NCBI GenBank assembly: GCA_032718475.1
Contig: JAUCBJ010006459.1
Location: 1 to 64,000, forward strand
Reading direction: 5' to 3'
From: Nemertoderma westbladi
Lineage: Eukaryota; Animalia; Xenacoelomorpha
DNA: 64,000 nt
Under the pieces are notes generated by a model. It saw only the letters and a program-made list of their open reading frames with translations. It ran no database searches and was not told the origin of the DNA. The translations under genes were made by a program, and so were the position numbers. This document shows positions 4,244 to 49,331 of this stretch, piece after piece (the first letter of the stretch is position 1; the number at the start of each line of letters is the position of its first letter).

Positions 4244-6973
4244 GTCTTATTATATACGTCAAGTACGGATAATAAAATGTCAAAGTGTCTGAATGTTGAA
4301 GTGTCAAACTTACCTAACCGGTACAAATAAATCAACAAGTCAGAATGTCGAAATGTCAAAATGTCGAAATGTACAAATGTCAAACTTACCTTGATATATA
4401 TATATATCATATATATACCCTAACCGGTACAAATAAACTAACAAGGTATATAATAAAATAAGTAGTAATCTAGCCTACCGGCTAAATTTGTACGAATAAG
4501 TGAGATAACGGTATACGTTAACAAAATGTAGATCAACAAGTATAAACAATAGGCCAAAACAGCAACGTCTAACGGGAAAATAAGTACCAACAACACTACT
4601 AATAGACAGTGAAACCCACAAATTTTGAGTACTACTGTGCTTTCTTAAGTTTGAACGACGCGAGTCGTAAAACTTACGTTCCTTTGATCTTCCAGTCGTA
4701 CAAATTCCCAAATACAAACCGGACGTGGGTCTTTCCGTTTTTCGGCGGCGCGGACGAATTTATTGTCTCCCAAACTTTGCGAAAAGCGGTCTAATCCTCG
4801 AAGCGGTCCAGAAATGAGTCCTTGAGTCCTGAAAAGGTCGAAGGTGAGAGTTTTACTTCTACGCTTACGAAAAATCTTCCTAGGTACCGATACAAATTGG
4901 TCTTTAAACCCTATGTACCTTTTCAAGTACCGAAAGTAACACCGCACACACACGGCGTAAAACAAAGTGCTACAAACTAACTGTTAGCTAGTCAAAGATT
5001 AAATACGAAAGTACTAGCTACCCTAAAAGCCTACTGAAGCAGGGGACGTTCTAAATTACTAAATTTACTAACCTTAGTTTTTAAATATCTCCTACTTTCA
5101 ATAGCTAACAATCGAAATAATACTATAAACTACGGCGGAAATACTATATACTAATTTATATAAATACTTCCTACTGTAAGGGTCCAGTAGTATACCGCTT
5201 ACCAGATCCTAGTAACGATGTATCTTACTATGAGACTCTAGTAATGTATACGGGCTTGTACAGTATCTGACAACAAATCCCAGTCCAGGATATCTAAACA
5301 AACAGATACAATACACAAACGACTACTGGCGAGGAACAGAGCCTTGTATCTATTCTATGTACGTGAGCGGGTCTAATGCCTACGTACTAGACAGAAGGAT
5401 ACCTGTCCTCTAACCGGTGAGGCAGATGTACAGTTACAGTAACAGACCAAACTCACGGGAAAACAATCCCCGCGCAGCGAATCCTAACTATCACTGACAG
5501 TCCTAAATACAGTAACTTGCCGCGGTGTGATTTATATGGTTTATATACGAGCTAGTGGGTTAACAGACCTAGCGTAACAACACTGACAGTCCTAAATCAG
5601 TCGAAAAGGGGTCGTACCTAAATGTAACAATAACTGATCCCCCTGTACGAAATCAGTCTAAAAGGTCAGGCCTAAATGTAACAATACCGTTGTCCAGACA
5701 AACAACAGTTTAATAACGAAAGTGAAATACTCCTTATTGCCGCAACTAAATCAGATCCTAATTTTACAAATACAGACAATTTCCACCTAAAGTAATGTAT
5801 AGTACGCTATAGCTAGTAGAACTTTAAGGGCAATATGTTTTAGGGCGTGTGTGTGTGGGTGTGTTACAAATAAAACAATTTCGTGTAATTCCTTTTACTA
5901 GGTTTTAGTGATTTTCTGACTAAATGATACCGTGCGCTAGCTACTAAAATAAACTAGTCGCGTTTGTAGAACTTTATACTCACGAATGACGTCAAAGCTC
6001 TCTCCTTCCTATCCACAACCCAATGGGCAACCACAGTGTTAGTAACTACACCCGTGATCGGCACTAATACCAGATTCTGGTTGTAAGATAAGAATAGGGG
6101 TTAATCGCTACCGTACGTTAGCTGATCTGGTATACTAATTTAATTCTAGAACTTTGTTGCTGCGGTAGTTAGCAGCAATACCTATCAGTACGTGGCAAGG
6201 CGCGGTAGGATATTAATAAACCTCCCTAGGCCAAGCAGTGTGCCGGTAGCAGAAATACTCCTTGCCTGATCAAATAGCTAACTCCAGACAGGGGGGGGGG
6301 GGGGGGGGTGTACTAATGTACGTTCTACAAAGCGAACCGGTACCAAACAGTCAGTGCTATGAATCACTAAATTATGGAACATATGCTGTCCGTACCTAAT
6401 ATGTACTCGCGTACTGACGAATGGCAATAGTTCGCACCTGTAGGAAGTACAGGTTTTAACCCAGGGATTCGTAGGACTTGACAAAGGGGGGGGGGGGGGG
6501 GGTTGTCTGGATATAATTATTTGATCCTAAATTTGCGGCGTCCAGTACGGTGTCACGCTTACCCTGATCTATAGGTCTTACGGCGGGCAAGGGCGTCGAA
6601 CAAAGTCTTACCTTCTCACAAAGCGGGCGCTGCATAGCAAGTGGAGTATTTCGAAGGGGCAAAGGGGGTGCGCGGTCGATCCAATGTGGGCGCTAGCGTG
6701 TTGTGGACATCCCTTCCCTGCGTTGCTTACGGCCTAACGATCTAGGCTGCCATCTCCCTGACGTTCGGCTGTCCCGAAGTAGGACCAAAGGAAAACATGT
6801 CAGGAATTTGCAGTATATTTACAGTTTTACAAAAGGATTTATCAAACGAAGTTTCAACAAGAAACCGAATAAACTAATTTTACAAAAGTAAGAGTTTTAC
6901 AAAGTGGTAAGAAGTGACATAATATAAGGTGTGTGTGACGTGATAACAGGTAATAACGGAAGGCAAACCGGCC

Positions 6974-7220
6974 TTTTATACTAGAAATTGCACATGGAAA
7001 CTAAACAGAATTTTCCACAGCTTCACCATTGAGCAATGAAGTGCTTCGTGCCCTATGATTGGCCCAGCTCATCGTTCAACGCAGTCCGGCCCTTACACTA
7101 ATCTGGGACATGGAATCCTAACAGAATTTTCCACTGCCTCACATTTGAGCAATAAGATAATTTATGCCCTATGATTGGCCTGGCTCATCATTCGCTACGC
7201 TGTACGCTTCTCATTGGCCT
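6974..7220 (-). promoter_or_regulatory. Pol II promoter in LTR C: duplicated ~115-bp unit with CCAAT and GAAnnTTC motifs, TATAAAA at 6980-6974
   Basis: A direct repeat at about 6991-7075 and 7107-7190 carries GAATTTTC and ATTGG in each copy. A third ATTGG is near 7213. TATAAAA reads on the minus strand. Confidence 0.6.
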
Positions 7221-7253
7221 ACCAATTAGCACCACACGAAAATAAATGGCCCC

Positions 7254-7343
7254 AAAATACAAATTTCCCGACTGGGATTCGAACTCGTAACCTATGTAAT
7301 GCACTATGTACTTTAACGCCTTAACCATCTGACCACTACGCCA
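7254..7343 (-). ncRNA. tRNA-like Pol III cassette (A box, B box, T-run) in U3 of LTR C
   Basis: The minus strand reads TGGTCAGATGGTTAAGGC ... GAGTTCGAATCC ... TTTT. The acceptor stem does not pair. Confidence 0.6.
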
Positions 7344-7599
7344 CGAGAGTACCTAAGGGTTTTATGTGTACAAATATGAATAGGCATATTACATTACTGT
7401 AGCTCAATCAAAATACGTCGGATTTTCGAAAGTTTTTACGTTAAAGTTAAACTACAAATGCTATCTTATAGTGAAATAATTCATCACCACGGGGTTAATG
7501 TTGACCCCCCACCCCCCCCCCAAACAATTGCTCATAAGAGTAGCTCTACTACTAGTATCGGCATGCTGCATTGCAGCTGCATTTTTAAGAATGCTGTGC

Positions 7600-7925: not shown

Positions 7926-7944
7926 AAAATTACTGGAAGCAAAA

Positions 7945-11577: not shown

Positions 11578-11726
11578 TGCCTCAGTGAGGCGTAGTCTGT
11601 GCCTCAGTGAGGCATAGTCTGTGCCTCAGTGAGGCATAGTCTGTGCCTCAGTGAGGCATACTCTGTGCCTCAGTGCCACAGTGAGGCATAGTCTGTGCCT
11701 CAGTGAGGCATAGTCCATGCCTCAGA
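11578..11726. repeat. 22-bp tandem repeat with palindromic core GCCTCAGTGAGGC
   Basis: About 6-7 copies of GCCTCAGTGAGGCATAGTCTGT. Confidence 0.9.
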
Positions 11727-11765
11727 CCTAAAACTCAAGACTTTAGGAGTGCCTGATGTCTTAAA

Positions 11766-12297: not shown

Positions 12298-12365
12298 GTA
12301 ACTAAATCAGCTGCCGCCCTAGATAAACTCAATAATCAACTAGCACCGAAATCTGCAGAAGAGAG

Positions 12366-18300: not shown

Positions 18301-18616
18301 CCAAATTCCAATCCAGTTCAGAAGAATTTATTAAGGCGATAGAGGACAGGAGACCAGAATCGACCATGGACAATCCCACAACAGCCAAAGGGCAGGACAT
18401 GGCGATTAAGAGAACAGAATCTCAACAGAAGGCATTGGGAATCGTGTGGGATAGAGAGACAGACGAACTGAAGTATCAGCTGAGCCAAGAGGGCGCAGAC
18501 ATCCACACGAAGAGGGGCTTTGTATCGTATATAGCAAGGATATACGATCCCCTAGGCCTAGCATCCCCATTATTAGTCACGGGGAAACAGATACTCAAGA
18601 GAGTATACAAATTGAA
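12366..18616 (+). pseudogene. B gag-PR-RT (5' part) with several frameshifts, stops and deletions; interrupted by A
   Basis: Consecutive ORF pieces give a coiled-coil and Asn-rich gag N-terminus, FKFDGS, CSRCVMSGHRAREC, protease LVDSGA, and RT motifs YYLPLH, DIEGMFNQV and FYVDD. Confidence 0.92.
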
Positions 18617-18742
18617 TATAGAATTATATTCCCTAAATGCCGTGGATTTTCAAAATTTGATTTTATTCGGATTAACTTTGTAAAGATTGCTTTGAGTTCT
18701 CATTCGTATTGGTTCTATCATTTGTACATCTATCGGTCAAGT

Positions 18743-18829
18743 GGTTCAGTAGCTCAGTCGGTAGAGCGTTGGAAATTATATGTGTAGTAGGTGTTGAGTT
18801 CGAATCCTAGTAAGTGCGAATTATTTTTT
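18743..18829 (+). ncRNA. tRNA-like Pol III cassette in U3 of the A 5' LTR
   Basis: TAGCTCAGTCGGTAGAGC (A box and D arm), GAGTTCGAATCC (B box, 18796-18807) and T6 at 18824-29. There is no acceptor stem or normal anticodon arm. Confidence 0.7.
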
Positions 18830-18879
18830 GTACAGAATTTCAACTCATTTAAATTAACCGCTACAAATTAATTGCATTT

Positions 18880-19060
18880 ATCTGTACCAATGAGACTGTA
18901 GTTATTTGATTGTAACCAATGTCGTGCAAGTTATATATTAGCTGGACCAATAGCTATCTTTAAAACCCCGTTAGAACCCATAGAACAATCGAGAATTTTC
19001 TCGATTGATTGCGGCACAAATTTGCTATATAAAGGTGCGATTTGTTCATTAGTTATTCAC
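18880..19060 (+). promoter_or_regulatory. Pol II promoter of LTR A: three CCAAT boxes, HSE-like palindrome, TATATAAA at 19026-33
   Basis: CCAAT at about 18887, 18916 and 18947; CAATCGAGAA-TT-TTCTCGATTG at 18986-19007; TATA box followed by TTAGTT about 20 nt downstream. Confidence 0.65.
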
Positions 19061-21340
19061 TTCTACTTCACAGATTATCTTATCAATATTCTGTTGTGCT
19101 TAGTTTATTTCAGATTACATTGTACATATTATTATAATCTTCTGTAATAAAGTCAGAATATTCTCTCAGCTTTTCTATCTGTTTTACTATGGATTCACTA
19201 CGGTGAACTAACTCAGGGACAGGATGGCCGGCTAGAGATCGGGCCGCAGCAATGAACGGGAACATCACGGGAATGTAGACGAGAGACAACCCGCAATACC
19301 ATTTAGAGTTATTCGCCCATCGCCTGAAAGGTTAGACAGCGTTCGATCCTTGCTACCTAAGTGTAAGACCAAAAGATCAAAAGGTAGACGTAGTGACACG
19401 CTGTAAGCCCAAAATTACATCATAGGGACTGTACTGTCTTGATTCAGGAAAACCCACAGTAGACCTTCACATTCCTACGGGGGGGGGGAGAGAGAGCGCA
19501 GGCAGATACTAGTACGCAGATAGGACGTAGGCACACCGGTACAAGGCATACACATTGGTTAGGGTGCAGCAAACTGTACGCTTAACTCTTGCTAAGTACA
19601 GGTGCGTGTGCGACTATTTGCAGTACGACAGTGTCCATTACATCAGAACTTGTAGGCTAGGGGGTTGCTGTGTTTTTACCTGAATTGGGATTGTACCGTT
19701 CGGGCGGTAGGGCAGTTTACGTACTAGGCGCAAATAAATTGAGGCTATCAGGGATATACTAACATCTACCGTGTCCCCGCCAACGCCCTAATAGGAAGTT
19801 ACCCGGACTACCTGGGTGACTAAAATTCTAGATAGGAGCCAGGATAGCTATTAGTACCTGTACGCCTACAGTAGTAAACTAACACATCTCTTCTTAGTAT
19901 CAGGGACCTGGTACCTAAAATTGCCGAATTCTGGGCGTAGTATTAACCTTATGCCTGAATTTGAGTCCTGGAAATACGCAAGAGGGGAAGGAACCTTATC
20001 ATTCGTGAGTATTGGACCTACAAGTTACAAAATTAGAATATTCGTAAATGCACACCGTACCCAGTAATTATATATGTGAAGGAGCAAAACTGTTTTGACC
20101 GTTCAGAATTAACACGCGCGTTAGAAATTATTTACACCTCGAAATATATAAAATTAACTTTTGTCCGTACTGTGCTTTGCCCGCTAGTTAGACATCTCCA
20201 AATCTCTGCCTGTACCTAGCTAGCGTCTCTTTGCCCAACCATATAAATCACACCGCGGCAAGGTATACGAGCCTCTTAGTCCGTCAGTGAGTCAGCCTGA
20301 TTTTAGGATTCGCTGCGCGGGATTTTGTTTTATCGAAGTTTGTCTGCTCGTAGACTGTTTTCTGCCTCACCGGTTATAAGAGATCGATACTGCAATATAT
20401 TCGCTTACTTAGTTTATTGTTTTGGTGAGAAGGTCGGATTTATGATTTGATTTACAAACTTTACAGTAGGATATTGCAGGTATTGTTACCGTCTCTTCGC
20501 ATAGTAGGAATAGGCGTATCTCTTCAATTAGTAGGAATATGTTTTACTGAACTACGGTTCGGTAGGACTAAAGTTATTTGAAAATTCTGTATTTTGAGGT
20601 AAAAATTTGTATTTGATTAGCTAAGTGCTAATTTTTTGAAATAAAATTTGATTTGAACCGCGTGTAAAATATTTTTGGAATTGAATACCGGTGTTTTAAA
20701 AGGGTTTAAATACCATATTGTACCGGTACAAAATTTTCGTAAAAGTAAAACCTAACTCTTTTGTTTTTTCAGGATTCAGAACTCATTTCTAGACTGTAAC
20801 GGGAGCAAGACCGTGTTTAGCAAGTTTGGGAGATAGATAACTCAACAACTTTGGTTGGGAAAATCGCGTTTCGTCCGCAACGTTAAAAACGGAAAGGTTC
20901 ACGTCCGGTTTGTATCTGGGAATCTGTTTTTCTGGAGAATTATTGGAGTGGGTGAGTTCGAAAAGTTGCATAAATAAGTTAGGCATTACCGTATTAGTTA
21001 AAAATTATTGTGGGTTCCACTGTCTCAAGTATTTATGCATTCCGTATGATTTCTTTGTTCATTGCTGAATTAGTCCGTATTATTGTATTTAATTTACCTT
21101 TTGATAACGCATATCGTTATCCGAATTATTTGTTATAAAATTGGCCGCTAGGCTAATTTTATTATATACTTATTCCGTGACATTTATTTGCTGTAAAATT
21201 GGCCGTTTAGGCTAATTTTATCCATCTGCTATAAAATCGGCCGGTAGGCTAATTTTATAAGACTGTAATTAGTACCGTTTAGATAAATACGGTAAACTCG
21301 ATACTTTGACACTCACTTTACTTGACTTACAACTACCGAA

Positions 21341-24300
21341 ATGAGTGACAAACAAGACTATACGAAAAATACACAAACCGACTATGACTCATGTGACGCG
21401 GATAAGTCAGCAGCGGAAGAACAACAGGGGAAGACTCGCGAGCCTACCGAACCTACACCGTGTGCATCACCAGTACATCCAACGGGAGTACCGGATGCCG
21501 TAGTACGAGGCGACGGCAGGACCGAGGACTTTCTAACTGTTCCGCAACCTAGATACAGGGAAACGGAAATGGTAAGTTCAGCAGGAAGCACAGAAAGTGT
21601 GGTTAGAAGCGTCGGTGGATACATGGCGCATATAACCAGGAGTATTGGAGAAGGCCAACGCTTATTAGACGGGTTGACCGCTCCGATGTCTCGATTCGAG
21701 TTCTACACCCTCCAGGTTAGAGTGCAGAGTAAAGTATATAAGTCCGTAGATAATCTAGTTGGCCTACAAGATCTAGCTAGACAGAGACAGGACATGGATA
21801 CTCAACTTAGAATCCTCGAGAAACTAATGATCACTAGAGAGAAACTGATTCAGTTTAAGTCGACGATTAGACAGATACAACAGGAACAAGCGGACCAGTT
21901 GTTAGGTGAGTCAGTTTCGGACGAATTATTACAACCCGAGGAAGAACAGGAACTGTACCGACTGGATGGACAATTGAAACATCTGACGGACCACTTACGC
22001 ATGTGCGGCGAGGACGTCGGAGATTGGGAAACCGTGCCGGAGGCTACGAGGGAAACTTCACTCGCACAAATCAAACCGGTACCGGGAACACTAGATCAAT
22101 CACTGGTGAGTATTCGCAGCGAAATTGGCGAGGTGAGTATGGCTACGTCAGAAATTGCTCGACAACAGCAGATCTACAGACAACAACAGGAGTGGGAGGA
22201 ACAAACTCAACTCATAATGGCACAAGCAGCAGCAGAAGAAGAGAAACTACGCGTTGCGAATGTTGCGAGAATCTCTCACCTGCAAGAACAAGCTGAGTTG
22301 GAAGTAGCCAAAATGGAAAGGTTAGAGTTGGACATTGCACAACAAGCGGCAGCGGCCGAGTTAGCGCAACGAACGGCAGCGGCCGAGTTAGAGCGACAAG
22401 CGGCAGCGGCAGCGGCAGCGTCCGAGTTGGAGCGACAAATGTTAGCTTCAGAAGCGAGAACCGAAATGAAAAAACGGCAAATAAAGGCTCAATCAGCGAT
22501 ACGACAAGCGGAGTTCGAGGCGCAACAACAACAAACGGAACAACGCGAGAAAGAAGTTAAACTTCGTTTCGAACTCGAGAAGAAGGCGAGAGAATTAGCC
22601 AACGCCAAGGAAGACCTGGATCTACAAGCCCGCGATCGATCGATGAGATCTCGAGACGGACATGATTTAGACCGGTTGGAGGTAAGGCACCGCCAAATCC
22701 AGGAACGAATGAAGGAAGGTTCGATAGGAGCACCCGGACGGGAACGACAATTAGTAAAAGACTTGTGTCAACGATTCCCACAAGTAAATCCTATGTTTGC
22801 ACCAGTTACGACTAAGGAACCTGTTTCGATTGCGGGTAGTAGTAACATTTCTCCTATCTATGGTGCGACGGAACACAGGTTTGTTATTCCGGACGAGTTT
22901 ACACCGCCAAGAGCAACGTCGTCGCCTATTCCGAAGGTCAAGGTAAGTAACCCGCCGATTACAGATCGTAGTAGTTTATTAGTCGGACCTGCACTACTGA
23001 CGACTAAACAGGTGAGTCCACCTCTGACGCCACAACCTGTTACACACTACGCTTACCCAATGACGTTTCGACCTACAAGGCCAGTTGATTCAAATGCTGT
23101 CATTCGCCCACCGGTTCAGTTTACATCGCAATCTACGACTTCAAGGAAGACTTGTGAGCCTACCGAACAACGGAGAACAGTGGATATGCGACCGTTCAAC
23201 CAGTTTGCATCGCAATCTACGACTTCGAGGAAGACTTGTGAGCCTACCGAACAACGGAGAACAGTGGATACGCGACCGTTCAACCAGTTTGCATCGCAAT
23301 CTACGACTTCGAGGAAGACTTGTGAGCCTACCGAACAACGGAGATCAGTGGACGATGTTCCAAAGCAAAACGTTAGAATTCGTACGACGCAACGGACGCG
23401 AGCACGTCGACCACCGTATCCAGGTGACAGTAGTACTTCGAGCGAGTCGGATTACCCGGAATGCGAGGTATTTAGAACAGGAGCGGCCGACAAATGTAAA
23501 CGTGAGCGTTCGGATAATTCATTTATCGACAATCCTCCACAGAATACACCAACACAAAAGGCGTTACAACCAACAGACGCGATCAGTACACAACAGTTCG
23601 CCGACATCCTGCGACCAGTTGTTAACAAGTTGGCTCAGATCGAGGAACGTCTAGAGGAAGGTTATACCGACAGTTCGAGAAATTCCGAATTCGAACACAA
23701 TAGACACCCGAAGGAACCACAAAGACCGGTACCTTCAAACCCCACATCGTATCAGGGAAAAGCGCCAAGAAGGGATATCAACAAGGTTACCAACCAAGGA
23801 CGCGAAACTCTGAACGTTGCAGAGGAGATAGCGAAATTCGCAGCCAGACAGGGATTGCCGGTACAACAACCACCGAAGTTTTCCGGTAGCTCAAAACACT
23901 GGCATACTTTCGTAGACTATATCGAATCCCAGATCGCTGTGTGCGCCTTTACATCACGGGAGAAGTTCAATTACCTGCTCCAAACGTTGTCAGGAGAACC
24001 TAAACGTTTGGCGGAGACTTTCGTCGGTGTACCGGACGCTTTCGAACTAGCGTACGATCGTTTAACTTCGATATACGGAGGTACAGTTAGTATGGCCAGG
24101 TCAGTAATAGAGGAACTCTGTAAGGGAGGGGCTATCACTAAACCCGTCGACTTACTAAAACTAGCTGACGAGATCAAGAACGCTATCACTACCTTAAGAT
24201 CAATTGGACAACTTGATTACGGGAATACCCCTACAGTCCTATTAAAGATAATAGGACGACTCCACCATCGACTTCGTCGGGAGTGGAGGAAGGTCGAATA

Positions 24301-27300
24301 CCAGCGAGAAGAGCGGGGAGGATTCTTAAAATTAGAAGATGTGTACCTTTTAATATCCAAGGAGGCAGTAGTAGAAACTAGATCTAACTACACCGACCAG
24401 CACATCGTGGCAGAAGGAATCACACTGCCATCCTCCAACCGACAAAAACCCCAGACAACATCCACTAAGACGGCCACTTACACCACACCGACGGAATCAC
24501 GACAATTCTCGGACGGAGGTAGGGTATCTGCGCCCATTGGGACAAAACAAACGAGACAGCAACTTGGTACCGACTTCAGTGGCTGCCAATACTGCGAGCA
24601 TCTAGGTAAGCGGTATATCGGTCACAAGTTACGAGGTTGTCGACAATTTCGCGAGTTGAACTCGGAAGAACGACGGCTGCAAATACGGCCACTGGACTCT
24701 TGTTGGCAGTGTACGCGACACGGACACGTCCGTAAAGATTGCCCAAATACCGACACTTGTCCATCCTGTGGACGCAACCACGACGGTCTGCTCCACACAG
24801 ACAGCCACACGCCGACAAAACGCTTCGCCAGGGAACACCCGGAAGCAGCAGCGAGATGTGATGCGGCCTATAGAAAACGAGAATCGAAAACGACTCCAAC
24901 CTTCGTGACCCATATTGAGGATTGCTTCTCAGAACAATCCGGATCGTCGGACGAAGAATCAGAAGACGACGAATATTCCAATGGAGACGAACAACCGTCG
25001 ATCGCGCTTCTGACCACTGACCAACTGAAGGGATTCAGTGTAATCCCGATTAAGATCACTGGCACAAAGGGGAGTAAGAGGATCTACGCGATTCTAGATT
25101 CAGCCTCATCTCATAGCTACGTGGATGAAAAGATAGCTGACGTAGTGACGGATCTTAAACAAGGTAAGCATGTCAGTTATACAGTAAGTAGTATGCACGG
25201 ACAGCGTGCAATACCAGTAACACGAGTTAAGTTGGACTTAGACACTCTTCTTCCGAAATCGCAACACAGCGAGAGGGAGAGGTCTTTGTTGCCCTTTAAA
25301 GATCTAACCTTTGCGGCCACGAAGGACTTTAGTAACCTACTAGGTCCAGTGCCGGAACAATCTCTAGAGGACCGTAAGTATTTCAGACACCTTGGTGTAC
25401 CTGAATGTCCTGTCAATTATAGATCGGTAGCAATGCTGATCGGGACAGACCAATTCAACCTACATCAGGTGTGGGAAACCAGACCATCGGCAGTTGTAGC
25501 GGGAAACGCATACGCCTGCAGAACGCCGATAGGGTGGTATACTCGAGCGCCTGTGCGCACACTAGACGTAAGTGACGAGGAAGACGATGTACAGAGTACA
25601 TGTAGTTTATTAACTACAAATTCAATTCATTCCTTCTCACACGACGTGAACCATACTACACTACAGTCGACAAAACATAACAGACGTGTAACTAGTATGA
25701 TAAGTCACAAGGAGCAGCTAATTCACCAGGTGAGTTTAGAACTTGGGGAGAAGACGAGTCAGCTAGAGATTCCATCGACGACAGATGATAGGCTTGCGAG
25801 TCTACCTACCCCAATAACCTCAACAGTGCCCGTCGAGATCGATGATGACGCGTTGAGAAATCATCAGTTGGAACAAGCTGTACTAGACAAGGAATTAACG
25901 GAGAAGACTATCAGGTGGTTAGAACAAGATACAGCTGAACCTGGTAGCTACGAACCTTGTATGTCGGAACAGGAGAAACAATCTCTGAAGATCATGGAAG
26001 ATACTATCCACCAGACGAAAGACGGACATTATGAGGTAGGGATGTTATGGTGTAGCCAAAGTCCTAAACTCATAAACAACTATCCACTGGCTTTAAGACG
26101 TCTACACTCAATACGGCAACGTCTATTAAAGGACGAGAAGGCCCATCTGCAGTACAACACTCAGATGGAGACGTATTTGACTAAGGGATACGCTATCCGA
26201 ATGACTAACCCAGAGATAGAGACTGACCAGACATACTACCTGCCACATCACTATGTGAGACATCCCGACAAACCAGATAAAGTACGCGTAGTCAACGACT
26301 GTGCGGCTCTGTTTGAGGGAATGTCCCTCAATAGTGAGTTGATGGATGGACCAAACATGAATAATTATCTTATGGGGGTGATTATGCGCTTCCGTCAGCG
26401 TCAAGTAGCTTTTACTTGTGACGTTGAAGCGATGTTTCACCAAGTGAGAGCGTTAGAGCGAGACAGAGACAGTTTGCGGTTCCTCTGGTACCCGGAAGGA
26501 GACTTAAGTCTACCACCGGCGACTTACCAAATGCAAGTTCGCGTTTTCGGTGCCAGAGACAGCCCAAATTGCACGATGTACGCCCTAAAGCAGGCCGCTA
26601 GGGATCAGAAACACCTGTATGACCCAGAGATAATTAGGATTGTGGAGCGTGACTTTTATGTAGATGACGGTTTACAGAGTTGCGACACAGTAGAACGTGC
26701 TACAACAGTAGCACATCAATTACGGGACTGCTTAGCGGGCGGAGGTTTTAACCTCACCAAATTCGCCTCAAACAGTGCCGAATTAGTAGACTCATTCGGG
26801 ACGACTGAGCGTGGAGGTGGTGACATAGACCTAGAGTTCGAACCACTACCGACGACTAAGGTGTTGGGGCTCTTTTGGGACCCAAACACAGACAACTTTC
26901 GAGTGAAAGTGAGACTGGACAGTCAAGAGAACACACTGACAAAGAGATCATGCTTGTCAAAGTTGAGCCGATTGTTCGATCCGTTAGGATTCATCAGTCC
27001 AGTGATACTGCAAGCCCGCATTTATATGCGCAGTATATGGAAGGATGGAATAACATGGGATGAGCCGATCTCATCAGACCAAGTGGACTTATGGAAGACC
27101 TGGGAGGCGGAATTATCTTCGCTAGAGGATTATTCCATACCCAGGGTTTACTTTCCATTACAAAGTACATTTCCTGACAACTTGGAACTACACTGTTTTT
27201 CTGACGCCAGCGACAACGGTTTTGGTGTGGCAGCGTACTTGCGCAGACAAGTAGAATCAGACGAGTTCGATGTTTCGCTCATTACTTCTAAGGCTAAGAC

Positions 27301-30033
27301 CATGCCTACTAAGTATATGACGACACCACGAGCCGAGCTACAAGCCGCAACCCTGTCAACCACCATCGTGAACCTCATACAGACAGAACTACAGTCGAGT
27401 TTACAGATATTTTATTGGACTGACGCGACGTTGGTTTTATTTTACATAAACAACGACACACTCGAATTCAAGACATTCGTTGCTAACCGTCGCGCGGAAA
27501 TTCTAGACCGTTCAATAAAAGGGGATTGGCGACATTGTCCCGGACCACAAAACCCAGCTGATATTGCGTCGCGAGGAATGATGCCTGAGGAATTCTGTAA
27601 ACCGGAGAACAAAGAATTTTGGCAACACGGACCCCAGTTCTTGCAGAAATCGACACAAGATTGGCCTCCGTTATACGACAACAAATCTAACACTATCCCA
27701 AAGGACGCCGAAATCAAGAAACCAAAAAAGGGGAAGACAAAGAAAAGGACGACGGCGGCAAAACTCAAGAAAAAACCGAAGGCGAAATGGAAAGATATAA
27801 CTTCAAAGGTCAAGAGAGGAAGACTTGCGAGCCTTTCTACACCAGACATATCGCCAGACGGTCAACCAGACGCGTTACTAGACGGTCAACCAGACATTCT
27901 ACCAGACACTAGTGACATACTGACAAACAGTAAAGCCGCAGTTTCCCTATTGGAGCGGCCTTCTATTGACAAACAACCAGATACGTTACCAGACGTATCG
28001 CCAGACACATTACTAGACAGTCGACTAGACATTTTGTCAGAAACATCACAAAATGTTCTACCGGACATTAGTAATTTATCGACTAACAGTAAAGCCGCAG
28101 TTTCCCTATTGGAGCGGCCTTGTATTGACAAACTACCAATTTTGACACACTTGAGCAACCATAAGCACGGTGAAACCTCATGTATTACAGATGTGGGTAG
28201 TACCTACGCTAATGTAAATACAGGTGTTACTTTGCGCTCAAGAGACATACCGAACTTGCAACCTATGGTGAAACCTGGGATTAATATCGGCAGAAAAATT
28301 AGTTTACCGAAACCCACTGATCCCATAGAGTTCAAACCACCATTAACGATCGACTTACAAAGTACCGACAATCAAGGTAAGAAGACAAAGAAGGACAAAT
28401 TACTTGTAGACCCGGACGGATCAACAGTCAACAAGGGAATACCTACCGGCGGACCCGTGGGCCCTTCTAGTAATTCAAAACCTTCCAAAATCTCAATTGA
28501 CTTACCTGATGACGTCACAAATACTCATGTCGACCGTATTGTAAACCTAACAGATTCTTGGACAAACGCTTGCCGAAAATTAGCGTGGATTGTACGTTTT
28601 GTACAATACGTTAAAGGCAAACGTGACTTTACACGTCGACTTACATTGACTGAGATTGACAGGTGTGAAATTAAATTAATTCGCCATTACCAACTGCGAT
28701 ATTTCGCGCGCGAATTCACATCTATAAATCAAGGTCAACCAATCAAGTCGTCACCAATACTGAGTTGGAGTCCGATTATTTATAATGGCTTAATTTGTCA
28801 TAAATCTCGGCTTCAAAACATTGACTTTAACACAAACTTTAGGTACCCAATAATAATACCGCAACACCACGAACTACAACGTGCAATGATACTGGACGCA
28901 CATCTACATCTGAAACACGCTGGAAGACACCACTGTCTTTCCTACTTACGTACTAGATTTGTATTAATTTGACCCAGTAAAGCATTAAGTTCAGTGACAC
29001 GTACGTGTATTATTTGTAAAAAGGTACATTCTAGAATAGGTACCCAAGAAATGAGTGAACTACCACAAGCACGACTTCAAGCATTCAAACCACCTTTTAC
29101 AGAGACGGGAATTGATTGCTTTGGTCCCATACATACGAAACGTGGACGTATACTAGTAAAACGCTGGGGACTGATTTTCACATGTATGTCCAGTAGGGCA
29201 GTTCACATTGAACGTGTGATGGATCTTTCCACCAACGCGTTTATACTAGCACTGCGGCGATTTATTGCTAGACGCGGACTAGTAAAATGCTTGTACTCAG
29301 ACCAAGGGACAAACTTCGTTGGTGCTCGGAATGAGATTGCTAGAGCCTTTAAGAAATTAGATCATGATCAAATCTCGAACGAACTGCAACCTCACAAGAT
29401 TGTTTGGAAGTTCAATCCTCCAGATAGTCCTTGGAGAGGCGGAGTCTGGGAGAGATTAATTAGATCTATAAAGACAGCCATGGCAAAGGTCATTCCAGTA
29501 AACCACATATTAACAGACGACCAACTGACAACATTGTTGAAATCGAGGCAATACTAAATACTAGACCAATAGTATTAGTACCCGATGACAAACAATCTCA
29601 ATTTGCTTTAACACCAGCACACCTGCTAATGCAGGCACCGACTACTTTGACGCCGATTTCTATTCCAATAGAAAGCGACAGCTACGGTAGAAAAGCGTGG
29701 AAAATCACGCAACTACTAGCTAACAAATTCTGGGAAATATGGCAAAACCATTATTTGCCCTCTATTTCTGCCAGAACAACTTGGTACAATAACACCCGCG
29801 CATTAAAGCCGGGAGATCACGTGCTGTTGGCAGAAGTGAATCTAAAAAGACGCTTCTGGATAACAGGTGTAATTTTAGCCACACATCCATCTATGGATGG
29901 AGTGACAAGAACTGTGACGGTACGGACAATTGACGGTCGTACAGTAGACAGACCGACTCAACGTCTCGTACTTCTTGAAGAGACTCGTAACGAGTCTGGA
30001 GACTACAAATCTCCACCTAATACTAGTAAATAA
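21341..30033 (+). pseudogene. A gag-pol polyprotein (Gag, PR, RT, RNase H, IN); nonsense at 28970 and 4-bp deletion near 29535, both in the integrase region
   Basis: A 2543-aa ORF plus two downstream pieces. Motifs: ILDSAS, FYVDDG, FSDAS...RAEL...WTD...NPAD, H..HAG..CIIC, DCFGP, SDQGTNF, GGVWERLI and a GPY/F-like tail. The lesions are defined by comparison with A'. Confidence 0.95.
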
Positions 30034-30700
30034 TTAGGAGTTTACAAATAGATTTCCACGTACCTGTACACTGTAGTAAGGACAGCGGTGGGATTCCATT
30101 GTCTTTATATGTGAACATTGAGGGTAGTACCCTTATGTGTCACATAGGAGCGGGATTTGTAGGTATAAGAAATGTAATTCTACTTGGAACTCACAATATT
30201 GAGACATTTTTGAAATTTTAGACAATCCATTTGGATTTGAAAATTTTTAAAAATTTTCTCCAGTGAATAGATTTCAGGGTACAGTCGGGTGGAACTTAAA
30301 ATTAGAGAAACAAGAGAGGAAGACTTGCGAGCCTTTCTTAAAAAAAAAATTTTTTAATTAAATTTTACACGGTCTTGTTTCAATAAGTTACGTCGAAATA
30401 GACTCCCCTATATTTATTACTAATTCTTGATTGCTTATTTTCTGATAATAGTTTGGGATCAAAAGGTGAGTATTTTAGACTCACAGCCAGTTTAGCCCAA
30501 ATTCGTTTTTATTTCGGCAAAAAATTTTAGATAAGAAGCAGCGTGTCATTAAAGAAACCTTAGATCTTAGGCTATGGGTAGGAGGTTAGAGCGTTGTCGA
30601 AGCCCAAAGGGCAGACGAAACTCTCACGTCTCCTCACAACTAACTACAAACTCTGTTGTATTCCCTCTAGTAGTAATGATTATGTAACTACACCCTAATT

Positions 30701-33700
30701 ATGGAGAAAGGGATACAAGGAGAGCCGAGATGGGGATATGATATCCAAGAGGAGGCAGCAGCGCCATTCGAAAGATTTGGAGCCAAGGATTATACTATAT
30801 TTGGTATAAAAGAATTATCGGAAAGTACAGCGAAACTCGTGAGAACTAAATATGACTCGAACGTATTAAAGAGAAGGCAAAACGCATTAAACGAAAGAAT
30901 CGAAAGTTTGCGCCAAACCTTCAACGAACTTTACCCGTACGATGCTTTGTGTGATACGGGAGACATTAGCGAAGACCCCGATACTGAAATTAGTCGTTTG
31001 TATCATACCATGCAATACCTAAAGGCGCATGAACCTATGCCCGCGGTACGCGATGAATTCGATGGAATGCATCTTTACAGACGAACTCGAGGGGACGATA
31101 GAGAAACCAAGGAAGCATTTTCAGTTTATAAACTTTATTATCAATGCGGTTCTTGTATGCGCGAACAACGAAATGCGATTCCGATGCGTTTGAATAAGGA
31201 AAATCCCGAACCGATATTGGCGAGGTGTTCGAATCATCAACAACTACGCTACCAGGAAGGAGGGTATCCTTTATCGAATCCATATCATTCATTTGCTATG
31301 ACCGGACCAAAGGCGGGAGAAACTGTCATTTACCCACCTAAGGTTGTTGAACCCGATGTATTTGAACTTACGCTGGACGAGGCGAATCAGTCAACCCGCG
31401 AAAAGAAAGAAGCTCTTAGCCTATACAGAGCCTACAAGGCTTTCGAGAAAGGTGAGATGGAAGAATGGGGTGGAAGACTCGCGAGCCTACCTTGCCATTG
31501 GACGTCACACGATCAAACTTCAGCTAAGGAGATGACACCGGAAGTTTTCGAGAGCATAAACTTTGCTCAAAACGTTATTCAGAGACTACAGATTGCATCC
31601 CCGGAGAGGCCAAGAGAAATGCAACCGTATAGTACTTCAACTACGAAACCATTGAGTACGACACTCAATTTCCCTATTAGTATACCAGTCCGACAGGATA
31701 CGACGTACGAAATACCCATCGTGGATCATCCAGAAATCATTTCAAACTTGGAGTTTCTTCCTGCAGTTGTTTTCAGCGATATGAGTAAGATATATGATTT
31801 ACGTAGACATATTACTCAAAAGGTCGTGCACAACGTTCCACCTCATATTCAAGATTTCAAGGAACTGGATAGAGCTGGTGCCGACATAGCTCCAAGTAAT
31901 CTGAAAGGATATCTAACCAAGACGATTCGTTTATGGATTGGAACCGGAACCTTCGAGTCGGATACAGATATTGCCGCAGATTGGCGAGGTAAGGTTATTC
32001 GTTTCGATGAGGATAAGGATATAGAGAAGATTTGGCAACCTTCGGAAGAATTGTTGGATGAATGGACTAGGACGTTTAGATCGTTTCAGGAAAACGGTTA
32101 TATGTTTTACGATAACGAGGGCGGCAGTCATCAGCAGAGTTTGACTTCTAAGACTATACAAATTAGAGCGGCGGACGGAGTCCTGCACGTTTTCAGTAGA
32201 CAGAGGAGCGACAAACGAATGCCGATACCTCCAGCGAATACAAAGCGACACCATCTTATCACCGATATAGTAAAGAAGATGGACCAAGCCTGTAATATTG
32301 ACGCTAGAATGCTACCGAAGATGGTAAGAAACATGATTTTAGATAAAACTGTTGTAAAGGTTGGATCAGGAGTAAGGGAGGATTTAATTAGCGACTTCGC
32401 CGGCATGACGGACAGCGATGACCGACTACCGACACCATACGTCGACACTCGACCTCTTATTCTGTGGTCTATAGAACAGGGATATTTTCGTGAGTATAAT
32501 ACTCAGAAGACTGGAACTGGATACATTTCCTACCTGTTATTCAATTGGGATTATAAGGAAAATAAGAGAAACAAGTATATTGAAACTTATGGAGAAGGTG
32601 ATACTCCAGATATGAGTGAGTTTGAATCACAGCTTAAATGGAGAGGATGCATGTATTGGGCTATTACGTCACCTCCAAGAGCGGTCTTACAATATTATTT
32701 AGCGATAGAGTCGTCAGTGAATGTTTGCCTAATCGCCGACATTGTGTCTCGGACTCTCAAAAGACATCCACTTTGTCTCGGAGAAGATCATACGTTCTAC
32801 ATGGAAGGGAGAATTCGTACCGACGTGTTTAGACGATTCCTTGAACCCTTCTACAACTCCGACGCTCAGTGTAATGCCTTTACTCGAGCAGGATTTAGCA
32901 TATTTCGAGACGTGTATCTTCGCTGTGCGGGATCTCTTATCGAAAGACCATCTATGTTTACACTGTTACCCAATGAAGGAGAACGTATCGTGGAAATTAC
33001 GGATGAATCACGGCAGACGCGCGCGCCTATCGGTCACCTTGGTGATGAATTCGAAGTAACTACTACGATCGCCGACGATCCTTTAGAGGAACTTCTTGAG
33101 ATAGAAAGGAACCTCCCGAAGAAATCTCAGACGGAGATTCGACAACTTGAAGCAACAGATGCTATAGTTTGTATACAACCTTCAGAAACCTACCAACCCA
33201 TAGACCCAGATGATTACGATTATAGTGTGGGAGGAAGCGCTCGACCGATTGGAGATCTTATATATGAACGAGTGTGGTACCCTGCGAATACGATGTGTAG
33301 TAAATGTGGCGTCGCTGGACATCATATGGCAAAGTGCAGTGGAAAGCACATTACTACGACTCAGCTAATCTGTGGATGGTGTGGGGATCAAGGGTCTCAT
33401 ACCTTTTATACTTGCTGGAGATTTATGGCCCAATGTACTTATTGCAATATAAAGGGACATCGAGCATCTGAATGCCAACTAAGGGACATACCTTATGAAC
33501 ACGAATCTGTAAAACTCGTGAGGAAGTTATTTGATGAGTGGGAAGATTTAGCCGACGAACATGTATCAGCACAAAGAAGACGGTTTCCGTTGAGAGCGCA
33601 TCTCGGATTTTGGGCGGTAAATCCCCAGACGATGATGTCGGAAGGATATATCTCCGCTATGCCCCAATATGACGAACTTATCGAGGTTGTCGATATTTTG

Positions 33701-34426
33701 CCCCACGACAGCGGATTCCGAGTGGTGCGCGAGTATCTGTTACAAATTCACCCGGATAACAAAAACACGTGGAATTTTCAGAAAGTCGTTAATCGGATTA
33801 CGTATGGTGAATTCGATCGTTTCCGAACTGAAAAGCGGAACAAGGGAGCTTGGTTAACCGTCGCATGGGCGTACCGAGCCGCGTTTTACCACAAACGTAT
33901 ACGAGCGAGCGTATTCGAGGAAGAAGAGGTCCTAGAGGCGACAAATATACCAGCCACTCCGGTTGCGCCGTCTGCACGTCACCCTCGGGAGGACGGGCAG
34001 GGTAGGATCATACGGGTCCAAAAGGTGGGCCAACAATTAAAGAAAATTATTAATGTAGAAGAACGCAAAGGAGTTGAGCCGACTATTCGAGTTACTCGGG
34101 ATACGGTATCACTTCCAAGAGAACCAGTAGGAGGGTCGGGACATACACCAGCTGATCAACAGGGGGCGCAAGCTACTCTTGGGTCTGCGTCGTCCGCTTC
34201 TCGCGCGTTCCCAGACGTTCTACCAACTGTAGTGACGACTGATCGGTCACGAGGAATCGGTCGAGGTTTTGGGATGCTAAATAAACGAATTTGCGAGGAA
34301 ATAGTCGCACCGTCTCTCAACGTCCCAAGTAAACCAGTGACTCGCCCCACAAGTCCCATATCGCGAGCAAAGTCACCTGTGCGCAGTTTTCGAGGACGCG
34401 GCAGGGCTCGATCCACTAAGCGATAA
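30701..34426 (+). CDS. Accessory ORF2 of A (1241 aa): DEDDy 3'-5' exonuclease-like domain plus three CCHC zinc knuckles
   Basis: Intact ORF in the env position. FYDNEG (ExoI DxE), LPKMVRNMILDKTVVKVGSGVREDL (ExoII, WRN/EXD-like), YVDT and QYYLAIE (ExoIII-like). Knuckles: CSKCGVAGHHMAKC, CGWCGDQGSHTFYTC, CTYCNIKGHRASEC. Confidence 0.8.
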   Translation: MEKGIQGEPRWGYDIQEEAAAPFERFGAKDYTIFGIKELSESTAKLVRTKYDSNVLKRRQNALNERIESLRQTFNELYPYDALCDTGDISEDPDTEISRLYHTMQYLKAHEPMPAVRDEFDGMHLYRRTRGDDRETKEAFSVYKLYYQCGSCMREQRNAIPMRLNKENPEPILARCSNHQQLRYQEGGYPLSNPYHSFAMTGPKAGETVIYPPKVVEPDVFELTLDEANQSTREKKEALSLYRAYKAFEKGEMEEWGGRLASLPCHWTSHDQTSAKEMTPEVFESINFAQNVIQRLQIASPERPREMQPYSTSTTKPLSTTLNFPISIPVRQDTTYEIPIVDHPEIISNLEFLPAVVFSDMSKIYDLRRHITQKVVHNVPPHIQDFKELDRAGADIAPSNLKGYLTKTIRLWIGTGTFESDTDIAADWRGKVIRFDEDKDIEKIWQPSEELLDEWTRTFRSFQENGYMFYDNEGGSHQQSLTSKTIQIRAADGVLHVFSRQRSDKRMPIPPANTKRHHLITDIVKKMDQACNIDARMLPKMVRNMILDKTVVKVGSGVREDLISDFAGMTDSDDRLPTPYVDTRPLILWSIEQGYFREYNTQKTGTGYISYLLFNWDYKENKRNKYIETYGEGDTPDMSEFESQLKWRGCMYWAITSPPRAVLQYYLAIESSVNVCLIADIVSRTLKRHPLCLGEDHTFYMEGRIRTDVFRRFLEPFYNSDAQCNAFTRAGFSIFRDVYLRCAGSLIERPSMFTLLPNEGERIVEITDESRQTRAPIGHLGDEFEVTTTIADDPLEELLEIERNLPKKSQTEIRQLEATDAIVCIQPSETYQPIDPDDYDYSVGGSARPIGDLIYERVWYPANTMCSKCGVAGHHMAKCSGKHITTTQLICGWCGDQGSHTFYTCWRFMAQCTYCNIKGHRASECQLRDIPYEHESVKLVRKLFDEWEDLADEHVSAQRRRFPLRAHLGFWAVNPQTMMSEGYISAMPQYDELIEVVDILPHDSGFRVVREYLLQIHPDNKNTWNFQKVVNRITYGEFDRFRTEKRNKGAWLTVAWAYRAAFYHKRIRASVFEEEEVLEATNIPATPVAPSARHPREDGQGRIIRVQKVGQQLKKIINVEERKGVEPTIRVTRDTVSLPREPVGGSGHTPADQQGAQATLGSASSASRAFPDVLPTVVTTDRSRGIGRGFGMLNKRICEEIVAPSLNVPSKPVTRPTSPISRAKSPVRSFRGRGRARSTKR

Positions 34427-35280: not shown

Positions 35281-37204
35281 TATAGAATTATATTCCCTAA
35301 ATGCCGTGGATTTTCAAAATTTTATTTTATTCGGATTAACTTTGTAAAGATTGCTTTGAGTTCTCATTCGTATTGGTTCTATCATTTGTACATCTATCGG
35401 TCAAGTGGTTCAGTAGCTCAGTCGGTAGAGCGTTGGAAATTATATGTGTAGTAGGTGTTGAGTTCGAATCCTAGTAAGTGCGAATTATTTTTTGTACAGA
35501 ATTTCAACTCATTTAAATTAACCGCTACAAATTAATTGCATTTATCTGTACCAATGAGACTGTAGTTATTTGATTGTAACCAATGTCGTGCAAGTTATAT
35601 ATTAGCTGGACCAATAGCTATCTTTAAAACCCCGTTAGAACCCATAGAACAATCGAGAATTTTCTCGATTGATTGCGGCACAAATTTGCTATATAAAGGT
35701 GCGATTTGTTCATTAGTTATTCACTTCTACTTCACAGATTATCTTATCAATATTCTGTTGTGCTTAGTTTATTTCAGATTACATTGTACATATTATTATA
35801 ATCTTCTGTAATAAAGTCAGAATATTCTCTCAGCTTTTCTATCTGTTTTACTATGGATTCACTACGGTGAACAAACTCAGGGACAGGATGGCCGGCTAGA
35901 GATCGGGCCGCAGCAATGAACGGGAACATCACGGGAATGTAGACGAGAGACAACCCGCAATACCATTTAGAGTTATTCGCCCATCGCCTGAAAGGTTAGA
36001 CAGCGTTCGATCCTTGCTACCTAAGTGTAAGACCAAAAGATCAAAAGGTAGACGTAGTGACACGCTGTAAGCCCAAAATTACATCATAGGGACTGTACTG
36101 TCTTGATTCAGGAAAACCCACAGTAGACCTTCACATTCCTACGGGGGGGGGGGGGGGGGGGGAGAGAGAGCGCAGGCAGATACTAGTACGCAGATAGGAC
36201 GTAGGCACACCGGTACAAGGCATACACATTGGTTAGGGTGCAGCAAACTGTACGCTTAACTCTTGCTAAGTACAGGTGCGTGTGCGACTATTTGCAGTAC
36301 GACAGTGTCCATTACATCAGAACTTGTAGGCTAGGGGGTTGCTGTGTTTTTACCTGAATTGGGATTGTACCGTTCGGGCGGTAGGGCAGTTTACGTACTA
36401 GGCGCAAATAAATTGAGGCTATCAGGGATATACTAACATCTACCGTGTCCCCGCCAACGCCCTAATAGGAAGTTACCCGGACTACCTGGGTGACTAAAAT
36501 TCTAGATAGGAGCCAGGATAGCTATTAGTACCTGTACGCCTACAGTAGTAAACTAACACATCTCTTCTTAGTATCAGGGACCTGGTACCTAAAATTGCCG
36601 AATTCTGGGCGTAGTATTAACCTTATGCCTGAATTTGAGTCCTGGAAATACGCAAGAGGGGAAGGAACCTTATCATTCGTGAGTATTGGACCTACAAGTT
36701 ACAAAATTAGAATATTCGTAAATGCACACCGTACCCAGTAATTATATATGTGAAGGAGCAAAACTGTTTTGACCGTTCAGAATTAACACGCGCGTTAGAA
36801 ATTATTTACACCTCGAAATATATAAAATTAACTTTTGTCCGTACTGTGCTTTGCCCGCTAGTTAGACATCTCCAAATCTCTGCCTGTACCTAGCTAGCGT
36901 CTCTTTGCCCAACCATATAAATCACACCGCGGCAAGGTATACGAGCCTCTTAGTCCGTCAGTGAGTCAGCCTGATTTTAGGATTCGCTGCGCGGGATTTT
37001 GTTTTATCGAAGTTTGTCTGCTCGTAGACTGTTTTCTGCCTCACCGGTTATAAGAGATCGATACTGCAATATATTCGCTTACTTAGTTTATTGTTTTGGT
37101 GAGAAGGTCGGATTTATGATTTCATTTACAAACTTTACAGTAGGATATTGCAGGTATTGTTACCGTCTCTTCGCATAGTAGGAATAGGCGTATCTCTTCA
37201 ATTA
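35281..37204 (+). repeat. 3' LTR of A (1924 bp), preceded by short PPT GGAGCGG; tRNA-like cassette at 35407-35493
   Basis: Direct repeat of 18617-20530. Confidence 0.95.
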
Positions 37205-37209
37205 TTGAA

Positions 37210-47699: not shown

Positions 47700-49331
47700 T
47701 TAATCATACAACTGTAAGATGTCAATTACATATTTAAATTTAATGGCGGTTTTCCATATCCTCCAAAATAAATTACTTCTCATTATCCGCTATACTAAAG
47801 GCTAAAAACAAACTGCGGCATTCTGATTCACATTCAAATGTTTACGTATCACCTGATTTGACCCGACTTCAGTCTGAACAGGCATTCCTTCGACGTAAAT
47901 CAAATCGCGATTCGAACAATGTTGGGCGAAGTTCAGGAGGCGAAACATCAAACCCGATTGCCACCCCCACTGAAAGTTCGGACTCGGAAAACCACTAAAG
48001 GGAGAAAATTCCCGTAATTCAAACCCGCTTGTACAGTGTTGTACTTTTAATGCTCAGTCATTGGGTAACAAACTATTGGATCTTGAACTGTTTTTATCCG
48101 ATTCAAGATGTGACTTAATCGGTATTACCGAATCGTGGTTAACTGATGATATTACCGACGAGATGTTAAGTGGCGATGGGAAATTTAATGTGTATAGAAA
48201 TGACCGTACTACTAGAGGTGGCGGTGTGGTCTTACTTGTTAAAAAAGAAATAATTGCTATAAAGGTTCCCCTAAATAACATGAAGTATGGTAGCGATATT
48301 GAAGTTGTTGCAGTAGATTTACTAAGTAACACTCCATCTCGTGTAATATGTGCATATAGATCGCCATCTTCTAGTATAGATACTGATACCCGTTTTTGTA
48401 AATATTTATCAGATTTATGTGAGGTACAGTACCCAGTCGCACTCTGTGGTGATTTTAATCTCAGACTATTTGACTGGCAAACAAATTCACACCCAGACAG
48501 TCCATTGTATAATCTATTTGCAAACTTTATCCTGGATAATGGTTTAACTCAATTACAGTACAACCCCACACGATTGAGTAGTGTTCTTGATTTGGTGTTT
48601 ACGTCAGATGAGTTATTTATTTCTAATGTTCATGTTTCTGCTGGTTTAGGTACGAGTGATCACGATGGATCAGTATTTTTTAGCATTTTCACCCCGCAAC
48701 CGGAAACTTATGATGACCGCGATTTTTATTATGATTTTAAAAATGCAGATTATGTAAACTTTTCTAGATTTGTTGATAATAATAATTGGGTATCCGAGTA
48801 TGAATCATGTATATCTGTTAATGACTACTGGACAACATTTAGTAATATTTTAAAATCTGGTATAGAACGTTTTGTTCCTCGAATTTTACTGCGAAAGTCA
48901 AATAAGAGATCATATCCGGCTTACGTACGAACTCTTCAAAAAAGAAAAAAAATAGCGTGGCGGCGAAGACACACTGTAGATGGCCAGGCCGAATACAAAA
49001 GGTGTGCCAAAGCAGCTTCAAAGGCGGTTTACCGTGCCGCATGTATTCGTGAAAATAAGATACTAAGTTCTGGTAAGTCGGATGCAATTTTCTCTTACGT
49101 AAATTCAAAGCGTAACAATCGAGCTGGTATTTCCGCTTTTAAGTACAATGGTAGTATTATTGTTGACGATTGCGCGAGAGCTAATATACTTGCAAGTGTG
49201 TTTACAGAAAATTTCACCACTGATGATAATGTTTTGCCAAATTTTACCAATAAAGTATCTTCTAGTGTGCATATATCGAATATAGACTTTTCACCTGTTA
49301 ATGTTTTTTCAGTTCTTCGTAAATTAGAGCC
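47700..49331 (+). mobile_element. CR1/L2-group LINE fragment: end of ORF1 and APE endonuclease part of ORF2, interrupted by A'
   Basis: ORF1 tail ILKAKNKLR...VYVSPDLT. ORF2 has FNAQSL, IGITESWL, YRNDR..RGGGV, YRSP, GDFN, PTR..SVLDLVF and SDHD. It breaks at LRKLE, just before the RT. Confidence 0.88.

Follow-up and report, generated by a model that had tools for sequence, protein, structure and literature searches.

A BEL/Pao retrotransposon of Nemertoderma westbladi that likely primes reverse transcription from its own LTR RNA

Described self-priming elements and the anatomy of element A

Self-priming has been described or predicted for Tf1/Tf2, Tj1, the Tf1/sushi group, Tcn1 and the plant TAR/Houba elements, as far as the available parts of the sources go (PMC4600332, PMC6317226, PMC6934838, PMC7175516), and according to the same parts it has been shown solely for Tf1/Tf2 and is predicted for the Tf1/sushi, Tcn1 and TAR groups. 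RNase H of Tf1 cuts the RNA between bases 11 and 12 (PMC7175516, available part), and for Tf2 the accessible part of PMC5341516 gives both priming-competent and priming-incompetent start sites, with a short RNA that cannot prime. For the plant Ty1/copia TAR lineage (Houba, Osr-1), self-priming is predicted from an LTR complement of at least 10 nt to sequence located 0-5 bp below the 5' LTR, and no intron-split primer is described for this lineage in the part of PMC6317226 that was available. For BEL/Pao elements we found no report of self-priming or of an intron-split primer in the full-text literature searched: the terms 'primer', 'tRNA', 'PBS' and 'intron' are absent from the BEL/Pao survey PMC3118150, the term 'tRNA' is absent from the Sinbad paper PMC554778, and the accessible parts of PMC3601003, PMC8220671 and PMC6431247 added nothing on priming.

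The DNA analysed here (the window) is a stretch of 64,000 nt from Nemertoderma westbladi (contig JAUCBJ010006459.1), and contains element A, an 18.6-kb BEL/Pao LTR retrotransposon. Its 5' LTR (18617..20530, forward strand, 1914 bp) and 3' LTR (35281..37204, forward strand) are 99.3% identical, differing by three substitutions and 10 G, and are flanked by a 5-bp target site duplication (TTGAA at 18612-18616 and 37205-37209). The LTR end was placed at 20530, the point where the sequences following the 5' and 3' LTR diverge, and a short purine tract of polypurine type precedes 35281. The LTR termini are the non-canonical TA...TA, with TG...CA found in C and D, the other elements compared below; the LTRs of two metagenome relatives (L022 and L029) likewise end in TA. 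The gag-pol gene (21341..30033, forward strand) encodes DUF1759, CCHC knuckles, protease, reverse transcriptase, Peptidase_A17/RNase H and DUF5641, with DUF1759, Peptidase_A17 and DUF5641 all above cut-off as in BEL/Pao members, and carries two interruptions, a stop (28970-28972) and a change of frame (near 29464-29557). These three domains and the 5-bp target site duplication are shared with the BEL/Pao elements (Belpaoviridae) that have a tRNA-type primer binding site (PBS), but A, C, D and most relatives of marine-invertebrate type lack the TGG, and A also differs in its 1.9-kb LTRs, its TA...TA ends and an extra ORF. The RT-RNase H region of A is 40-44% identical to the best 120 of 1731 homologues, and the nearest RT-RNase H proteins with a named source come from mussels, sea urchins, a sea cucumber, corals and other cnidarians, and a brachiopod. 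In a quick unrooted tree, which served only to group families, A and its sister copy B form a long branch; together with the 40-44% identity, this means that carrying the family result over to A rests on anatomy and not on close kinship. A viral contig collection yielded no relatives.

Three further elements of the window were used for comparison. Element B is a sister copy of A (96-97% identical, truncated at 62889), and its 3' LTR (49331..51231, reverse strand) is 96% identical to that of A. Element C, with its 5' LTR at 5175..7486 (reverse strand), is a more distant relative (~68% in coding DNA), and a contig break in one sequencing run supports its LTR end at 5175. Element A itself sits inside the pol gene of a Pao element, D (5' LTR 11766-12297 and PBS 12298-12308, forward strand), which extends over 11766-43541 with LTRs that are 99.6% identical and a TTAAA target site duplication; a decayed, inverted relative is present at ~45036-46805. 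The window also contains tandem arrays at 7842-9121 (36 bp), 11552-11747 (22 bp) and 39537-40144 (36/62 bp), the last of them inside element D, downstream of pol and ahead of the 3' LTR, as well as an ORF for an APE-type endonuclease of a non-LTR element (47974-49374, forward strand) and a non-LTR-like ORF fragment (10300-10971, reverse strand).

Complementarity between the primer binding site and the LTR

The PBS of A, GTAGGAATATG (20531..20541, forward strand), is flush with the LTR end and lacks TGG, and is therefore not a standard tRNA site. Its complement, the candidate self-primer CACATTCCTAC with 3' end ...AC, is located at 19468..19478 (forward strand), and the same complement recurs in the 3' LTR at 36132-36142 and in the 3' LTR of B at 50368-50358. 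Counted from the primer 3' end, the duplex has eight perfect pairs, one C-A mismatch and two further pairs, so that the 10/11 pairing with eight contiguous pairs reported in the first-pass annotation is borne out at 19468-19478 and 20531-20541. The complement had also been said to end flush with the LTR edge, which is correct for the start of the PBS (20531) and incorrect for the complement itself, as this lies 851 nt inside the LTR. The end of U5 and the PBS are duplicated in tandem in A (20489-20541, of which 20489..20530 on the forward strand belongs to the LTR, with an inner PBS-like copy at 20504-20514), which explains why the LTR of A is 27 nt longer than that of B; since the LTR of B ends at the inner PBS copy, the LTR boundary has shifted with the PBS used.

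An LTR segment of about 11 nt complementary to a PBS adjoining the LTR end is also what characterises the Tf1/sushi group in the available parts of the sources, and such a segment is found in A (10/11), C (10/10) and D (9/9). The PBS of C, GTAGGAAGTA (5174-5164, reverse strand), pairs with 6449-6440 and gains one additional G-U pair, and the complement of the PBS of D is at 12114-12122. All three sites start without the TGG expected for a tRNA primer, with GTAGG in A and C and GTAAC in D. Against the TAR definition, as given in the available part of PMC6317226, C and the relatives described below have the required length, whereas A, with eight contiguous pairs and 10/11 overall, is below the cut-off.

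False PBS positions served as controls for these matches. In the long LTR of A, 56/764 positions reach eight contiguous pairs and 14/769 reach 10/11 without a mismatch in the eight 3' pairs, and the match of A taken alone thus has a chance level of 2-7%; the corresponding counts are 1/824 positions reaching 10 for C and 0/654 reaching 9 for D. When ranked by stability, the site is the best partner of the PBS in the whole LTR in A, C and D alike, with -11.2 kcal/mol versus -9.0 for the next best in A, -16.5 versus -10.8 in C and -8.8 versus -5.2 in D. A first unconstrained scan had ranked chance matches above the true sites of A and C, and the primer site and the PBS stayed unpaired with each other in a global fold of 19440-20600, which at that length is weak evidence. 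The primer sites of A and C align locally, and the joint change of both sites noticed in the first-pass annotation (GGAAT/ATTCC versus GGAAG/CTTCC) is a genuine two-sided change, albeit in a single pair of elements; non-homology of the two sites, as a long alignment had suggested, was dropped after the local alignment. A search for a primer built across a splice junction in A yielded at best 9 nt for a canonical junction (offset 1, atypical end), and the contiguous site is preferred. No canonical junction beats the contiguous site, and A is therefore of the ready-made primer type. Element C has a second candidate, of junction type, with nine perfect pairs (donor 6822, acceptor 6477, reverse strand), a GTAAA donor, a poly-C tract with an AAG acceptor, and a distance to the TATA box like that of the relatives. 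The contigs of one sequencing run contain no splice joints in A or C and leave 19338-19605 uncovered, which carries no weight either way.

The search was extended to metagenome relatives, where 577/603 candidate stretches passed and the best 80 of the 577 BEL/Pao loci were used. For ten families the LTR end could be set by comparing the 5' and 3' copies, blind to the pairing, and nine of these ten have a perfect complement of 10-12 nt in their own LTR, to a sequence starting 0-4 nt after the LTR. The complement exists only across a GT-AG intron of 71-149 nt in five of the nine (L012, L016, L017, L022 and L045) and is contiguous in four (L029, L038, L065 and L075), while the tenth family (L021) has a TGG tRNA-type PBS. 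Swapping PBS and LTR between families gave 0/90 pairs of at least 10 nt, or 2/154 with the long window LTRs included. In 12/12 fixed-end matches, A included, the last two primer bases are AC or AT (AC in A and 10/11 of the others, AT in one), and the distance to the LTR end is 0-4 nt.

A wider scan covered 43 of the best 80 of the 577 loci, the 37 dropped being 10 further family copies and 27 loci without usable LTR or gag-start DNA. Under a rule chosen after seeing the data (primer end ACA or ATA, PBS start GT or AT), at least 11 nt were found in 21/43 families versus 30/1806 cross pairs, and at least 10 nt in 23 families (15 junction-type, 8 contiguous), counts which are not fully independent since the surveyed families are related. 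All 15 junction-type primers have GTAAG donors and introns of 71-426 nt, with the primer extending 4-7 nt into the second exon. An unconstrained scan without this rule gave at least 11 nt in 23/46 own versus 269/2070 cross pairs, a permissive null, and 16/46 versus 108/2070 when limited to junctions. Many of the 20 families with less than 10 nt have a partial LTR on the contig, and L065 was lost to the window limit of the scan; a TGG-type site was recognised by eye in four loci (L021, L025, L062 and L072). The PBS differs in every family, and each is matched by the family's own LTR.

In most of the related families the primer is predicted to be assembled by splicing of an LTR intron. One locus, L075 (1-326 and 6694-7103), has one LTR copy which keeps the 3' end of the intron and another in which the primer is contiguous, joined at the exact junction predicted for L067/L069; this apparent precise intron loss speaks for genuine splicing and subsequent reverse transcription. 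Another locus (L070:260-640) has two nested pairings, one of junction type recognised by eye and a contiguous one of 13-14 nt near the inferred RNA start. We conclude that the pairing of A is genuine and forms part of a tRNA-independent arrangement shared across the clade.

Putative promoters, proposed priming and competing readings

Two TATA boxes are conserved in A, B and C: an upstream box at 19026..19032 (forward strand; 6980 in C) and a downstream box at 20242..20248 (forward strand), the latter in a 26-nt block that is identical in A and C. The upstream box is the putative promoter of a priming-competent full-length RNA. Promoters, A- and B-boxes and splice sites were assigned by general consensus sequences. 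There is no TATA box ~30 nt above 19468, the conserved one being 442 nt upstream, and the primer is probably not the first 11 nt of the RNA, as it is in Tf1. A 5'-terminal primer of the Tf1 type is therefore unlikely in A, whose primer probably has an internal position, some 440 nt downstream of the conserved TATA box. An AATAAA at 19733..19738 (forward strand), 255 nt below the primer end, would mark the end of R, and C has an ATTAAA 296 nt below its primer site. Another AATAAA (19146), which shares bases with a donor-like GT (19144), lies ~90 nt downstream of the proposed start (19139-19151); R can include the primer site only if this signal is disregarded in the 3' LTR.

U3 contains a module of tRNA origin, with A-box, B-box and a T6 run (18742..18829, forward strand), also present in C (7343-7254, reverse strand), with the B-box block identical over 12 nt in A and C. 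It is not a tRNA gene according to ARAGORN and Rfam and has no significant fold, and its conservation suggests a retained Pol III promoter or an insulator. Further downstream, a GC-rich block at ~19190-19480 is conserved between A and C and contains a B-box-like motif (19341 in A, 6601 in C), with stretches free of T4 at 19186-19672 in A and 6791-5950 in C. Neither Rfam nor ARAGORN detected a ribozyme or tRNA gene in the LTRs, and three aligned rows gave no convincing consensus structure for the A/C conserved block; because of these negative results, ribozyme cleavage at the primer was set aside.

Taken together, A likely starts reverse transcription from its own LTR RNA and not from a host tRNA. 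Transcription from the TATA box at 19026 would start ~30 nt below it and give a full-length RNA with an R region of about 19055-19755, in which the segment 19468-19478 would fold onto the PBS over a distance of about 1050 nt. The RNA would then be cut just after 19478, probably by the RNase H of the element by analogy with Tf1, so that a free 3'-OH would sit exactly at the LTR end. From there, reverse transcriptase would copy U5 and then R as far as the G run that directly follows the primer. The strong-stop DNA would jump to the 3' R, which would reach as far as the poly(A) signal at 19733. Like the short Tf2 RNA, an RNA starting at the second TATA box (20242) would have neither the primer nor the terminal redundancy, and would make protein without being able to prime. 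Most of the related families would assemble their primer by splicing an LTR intron, with A, C and D carrying theirs contiguously. A self-primer with its 3' end at 19478 was already implied by the first-pass annotation and is supported by C, D and the family survey, although that annotation overlooked both the lack of a TATA box ~30 nt above 19468 and the primers split by an intron in relatives.

In this respect A works like Tf1, but outside the Tf1 group. Judging from the available parts of the sources, A shares with Tf1/Tf2 of Schizosaccharomyces pombe, Tj1 and Tcn1 the lack of a tRNA-type PBS (PMC7175516, PMC4600332), and by its two TATA boxes would resemble Tf2 in having alternative starts above and below the primer (PMC5341516). 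In contrast to the Tf1/sushi elements, which are Ty3/gypsy members with a chromovirus-related pol, A has Pao-type domains and belongs to a different superfamily, and many of its relatives have a predicted intron-split primer. Counting against self-priming, the duplex of A is modest with eight contiguous pairs, and no precedent for cleavage of an internal primer was found in the literature searched.

Other explanations of the pairing are possible, the closest being a self-encoded primer acting in trans, in which a short LTR transcript, with its 3' end set at 19478 by termination or trimming, base-pairs with the PBS of a second RNA molecule. Its source could be the upstream TATA box or a Pol III-like unit at the B-box at 19341, with trimming possibly by the exonuclease-like product of the extra ORF. 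The conserved GC-rich block (19190-19480) with its B-box-like motif and long T4-free stretches would suit such a transcript, as would the resemblance of the extra ORF to DEDDy 3'-5' exonucleases; however, there is no convincing A-box, B has a T4 run just upstream of its B-box, Rfam is negative and no conserved structure emerged, and the ORF was found in none of the best 80 of the 577 metagenome loci, many of which share the PBS pairing, so that we regard a primer in trans as improbable. Priming of A by a half-tRNA or other host RNA, with the LTR complement as a chance match or relic, is very improbable, even if the 2-7% chance level leaves room for it when A is viewed in isolation and half-tRNA primers without TGG exist in Ty1/copia lineages (PMC6317226, available part). 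Chance or relic status is hard to reconcile with A, C, D and 23 relatives, where each distinct PBS is matched by its own LTR, or with the changes on both sides of the helix between A and C, and the complement is not part of the tRNA-like module in U3.

The least probable of these alternatives is that the pairing is real and structural, serving in packaging, dimerisation or translation control (compare the long-range leader pairings of retroviruses), and does not provide a primer. The long distance between the primer site and the inferred 5' end would fit a structural role, and the duplex can be lengthened by the G/GA-rich stretch together with U5 pyrimidines, but the end of the helix is invariably within 0-4 nt of the LTR end, the position at which the minus strand has to be started, and this position offers no other primer site. 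Self-priming from the LTR RNA therefore remains our preferred reading for A.

The G run, the extra ORF and implications for BEL/Pao elements

Directly 3' of the candidate primer is a run of 10 G (19479..19488, forward strand), which has 20 G in the 3' LTR of A (36143-36162) and 5 G in the 3' LTR of B (50357-50353), confirming in the assembly the lengths of about 10, about 20 and 5 given in the first-pass annotation. The role implied there for the poly-G could not be established, as the run is absent from C, D and 24/24 relatives, and the earlier interpretation is thus supported in part, for self-priming and not for the G run. We consider homopolymer slippage or assembly error the most likely cause of the length differences. 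It is possible, if unlikely, that the length varies because the run is the end of the strong-stop DNA, with untemplated additions or slippage at the first strand transfer. The run begins exactly at the predicted cut, and 3/27 families have a perfect tandem repeat that starts at the primer end, versus 109/9519 background positions (1.1%; p about 0.004 with A and 0.04 without A). These repeats include a 9-bp repeat from the predicted primer end in L045/L049, which varies between copies; in L004, a 3-bp repeat of 44 nt starts exactly at this position. However, a single transfer gives both LTRs the same sequence, yet those of A differ by 10 G; G or C runs of at least 8 nt are common (14 in the window); and 24/27 families have no such repeat, with indels between the LTR copies of relatives showing no clustering at the primer end and lying mostly elsewhere. 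The link of the G run to strand transfer is thus possible but weak.

The extra ORF of A (30680..34426, forward strand) encodes 1248 aa with a putative DEDDy-like 3'-5' exonuclease region and, after it, three CCHC knuckles. It occupies the env position, is also present in B (55855-52107, reverse strand), and is open in A and broken near 53879 in B; identity as env was rejected, as there was no env-like match. A protein atlas grouped aa 468-690 with 3'-5' exonucleases (0.93, 176 shared features, PF01612 in 92% of the cluster), and we take aa 479/481, 568 and 673-677 to be candidate ExoI-III motifs. Pfam and PDB sequence searches with the ORF were negative, two word-index searches gave no matches, and single-sequence folds had a pLDDT of about 30. 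A profile-free library search gave two weak matches, of which the distant protein P0124 shares the exonuclease-like region and a knuckle, and the other, a C2-repeat protein, was judged spurious. The bdelloid elements Juno and Vesta likewise have an exonuclease-like ORF, the DEDDy ORF3, which takes the place of env downstream of pol and ahead of the 3' LTR (PMC5408684, available part). These belong to other LTR lineages, and the ORF of A is distinguished by its 1248 aa with three CCHC knuckles; the likeness described here is one of layout. The ORF was not detected in the best 80 of the 577 metagenome BEL/Pao loci, many of which have the pairing, and the nuclease is therefore not needed for pairing in the clade; that it trims the primer in A is speculation.

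A more far-reaching scenario, which we regard as doubtful, is that this animal BEL/Pao clade dropped the tRNA and has its primer built by the spliceosome, with A as a giant derived member whose ready-made primer is buried hundreds of nucleotides deep in the RNA, released at the G run and finished by a captured 3'-5' exonuclease. The LTR intron would in that case be a replication switch. Junction primers, if real, would tie the replication of the relatives to host splicing, and the LTR intron would survive reverse transcription, as the strong-stop DNA would end below the intron and the 3' LTR would serve as the template for copying it anew. In A, an internal primer would call for a cut far from the 5' end of the RNA, and each point of the model predicts an exact RNA end. 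BEL/Pao is the third large LTR superfamily, and self-priming there would be new to the literature searched. If true, it would explain the many animal BEL/Pao elements without a recognisable PBS, which are missed by PBS-based annotation, and such elements would escape control by tRNA supply or tRNA fragments.
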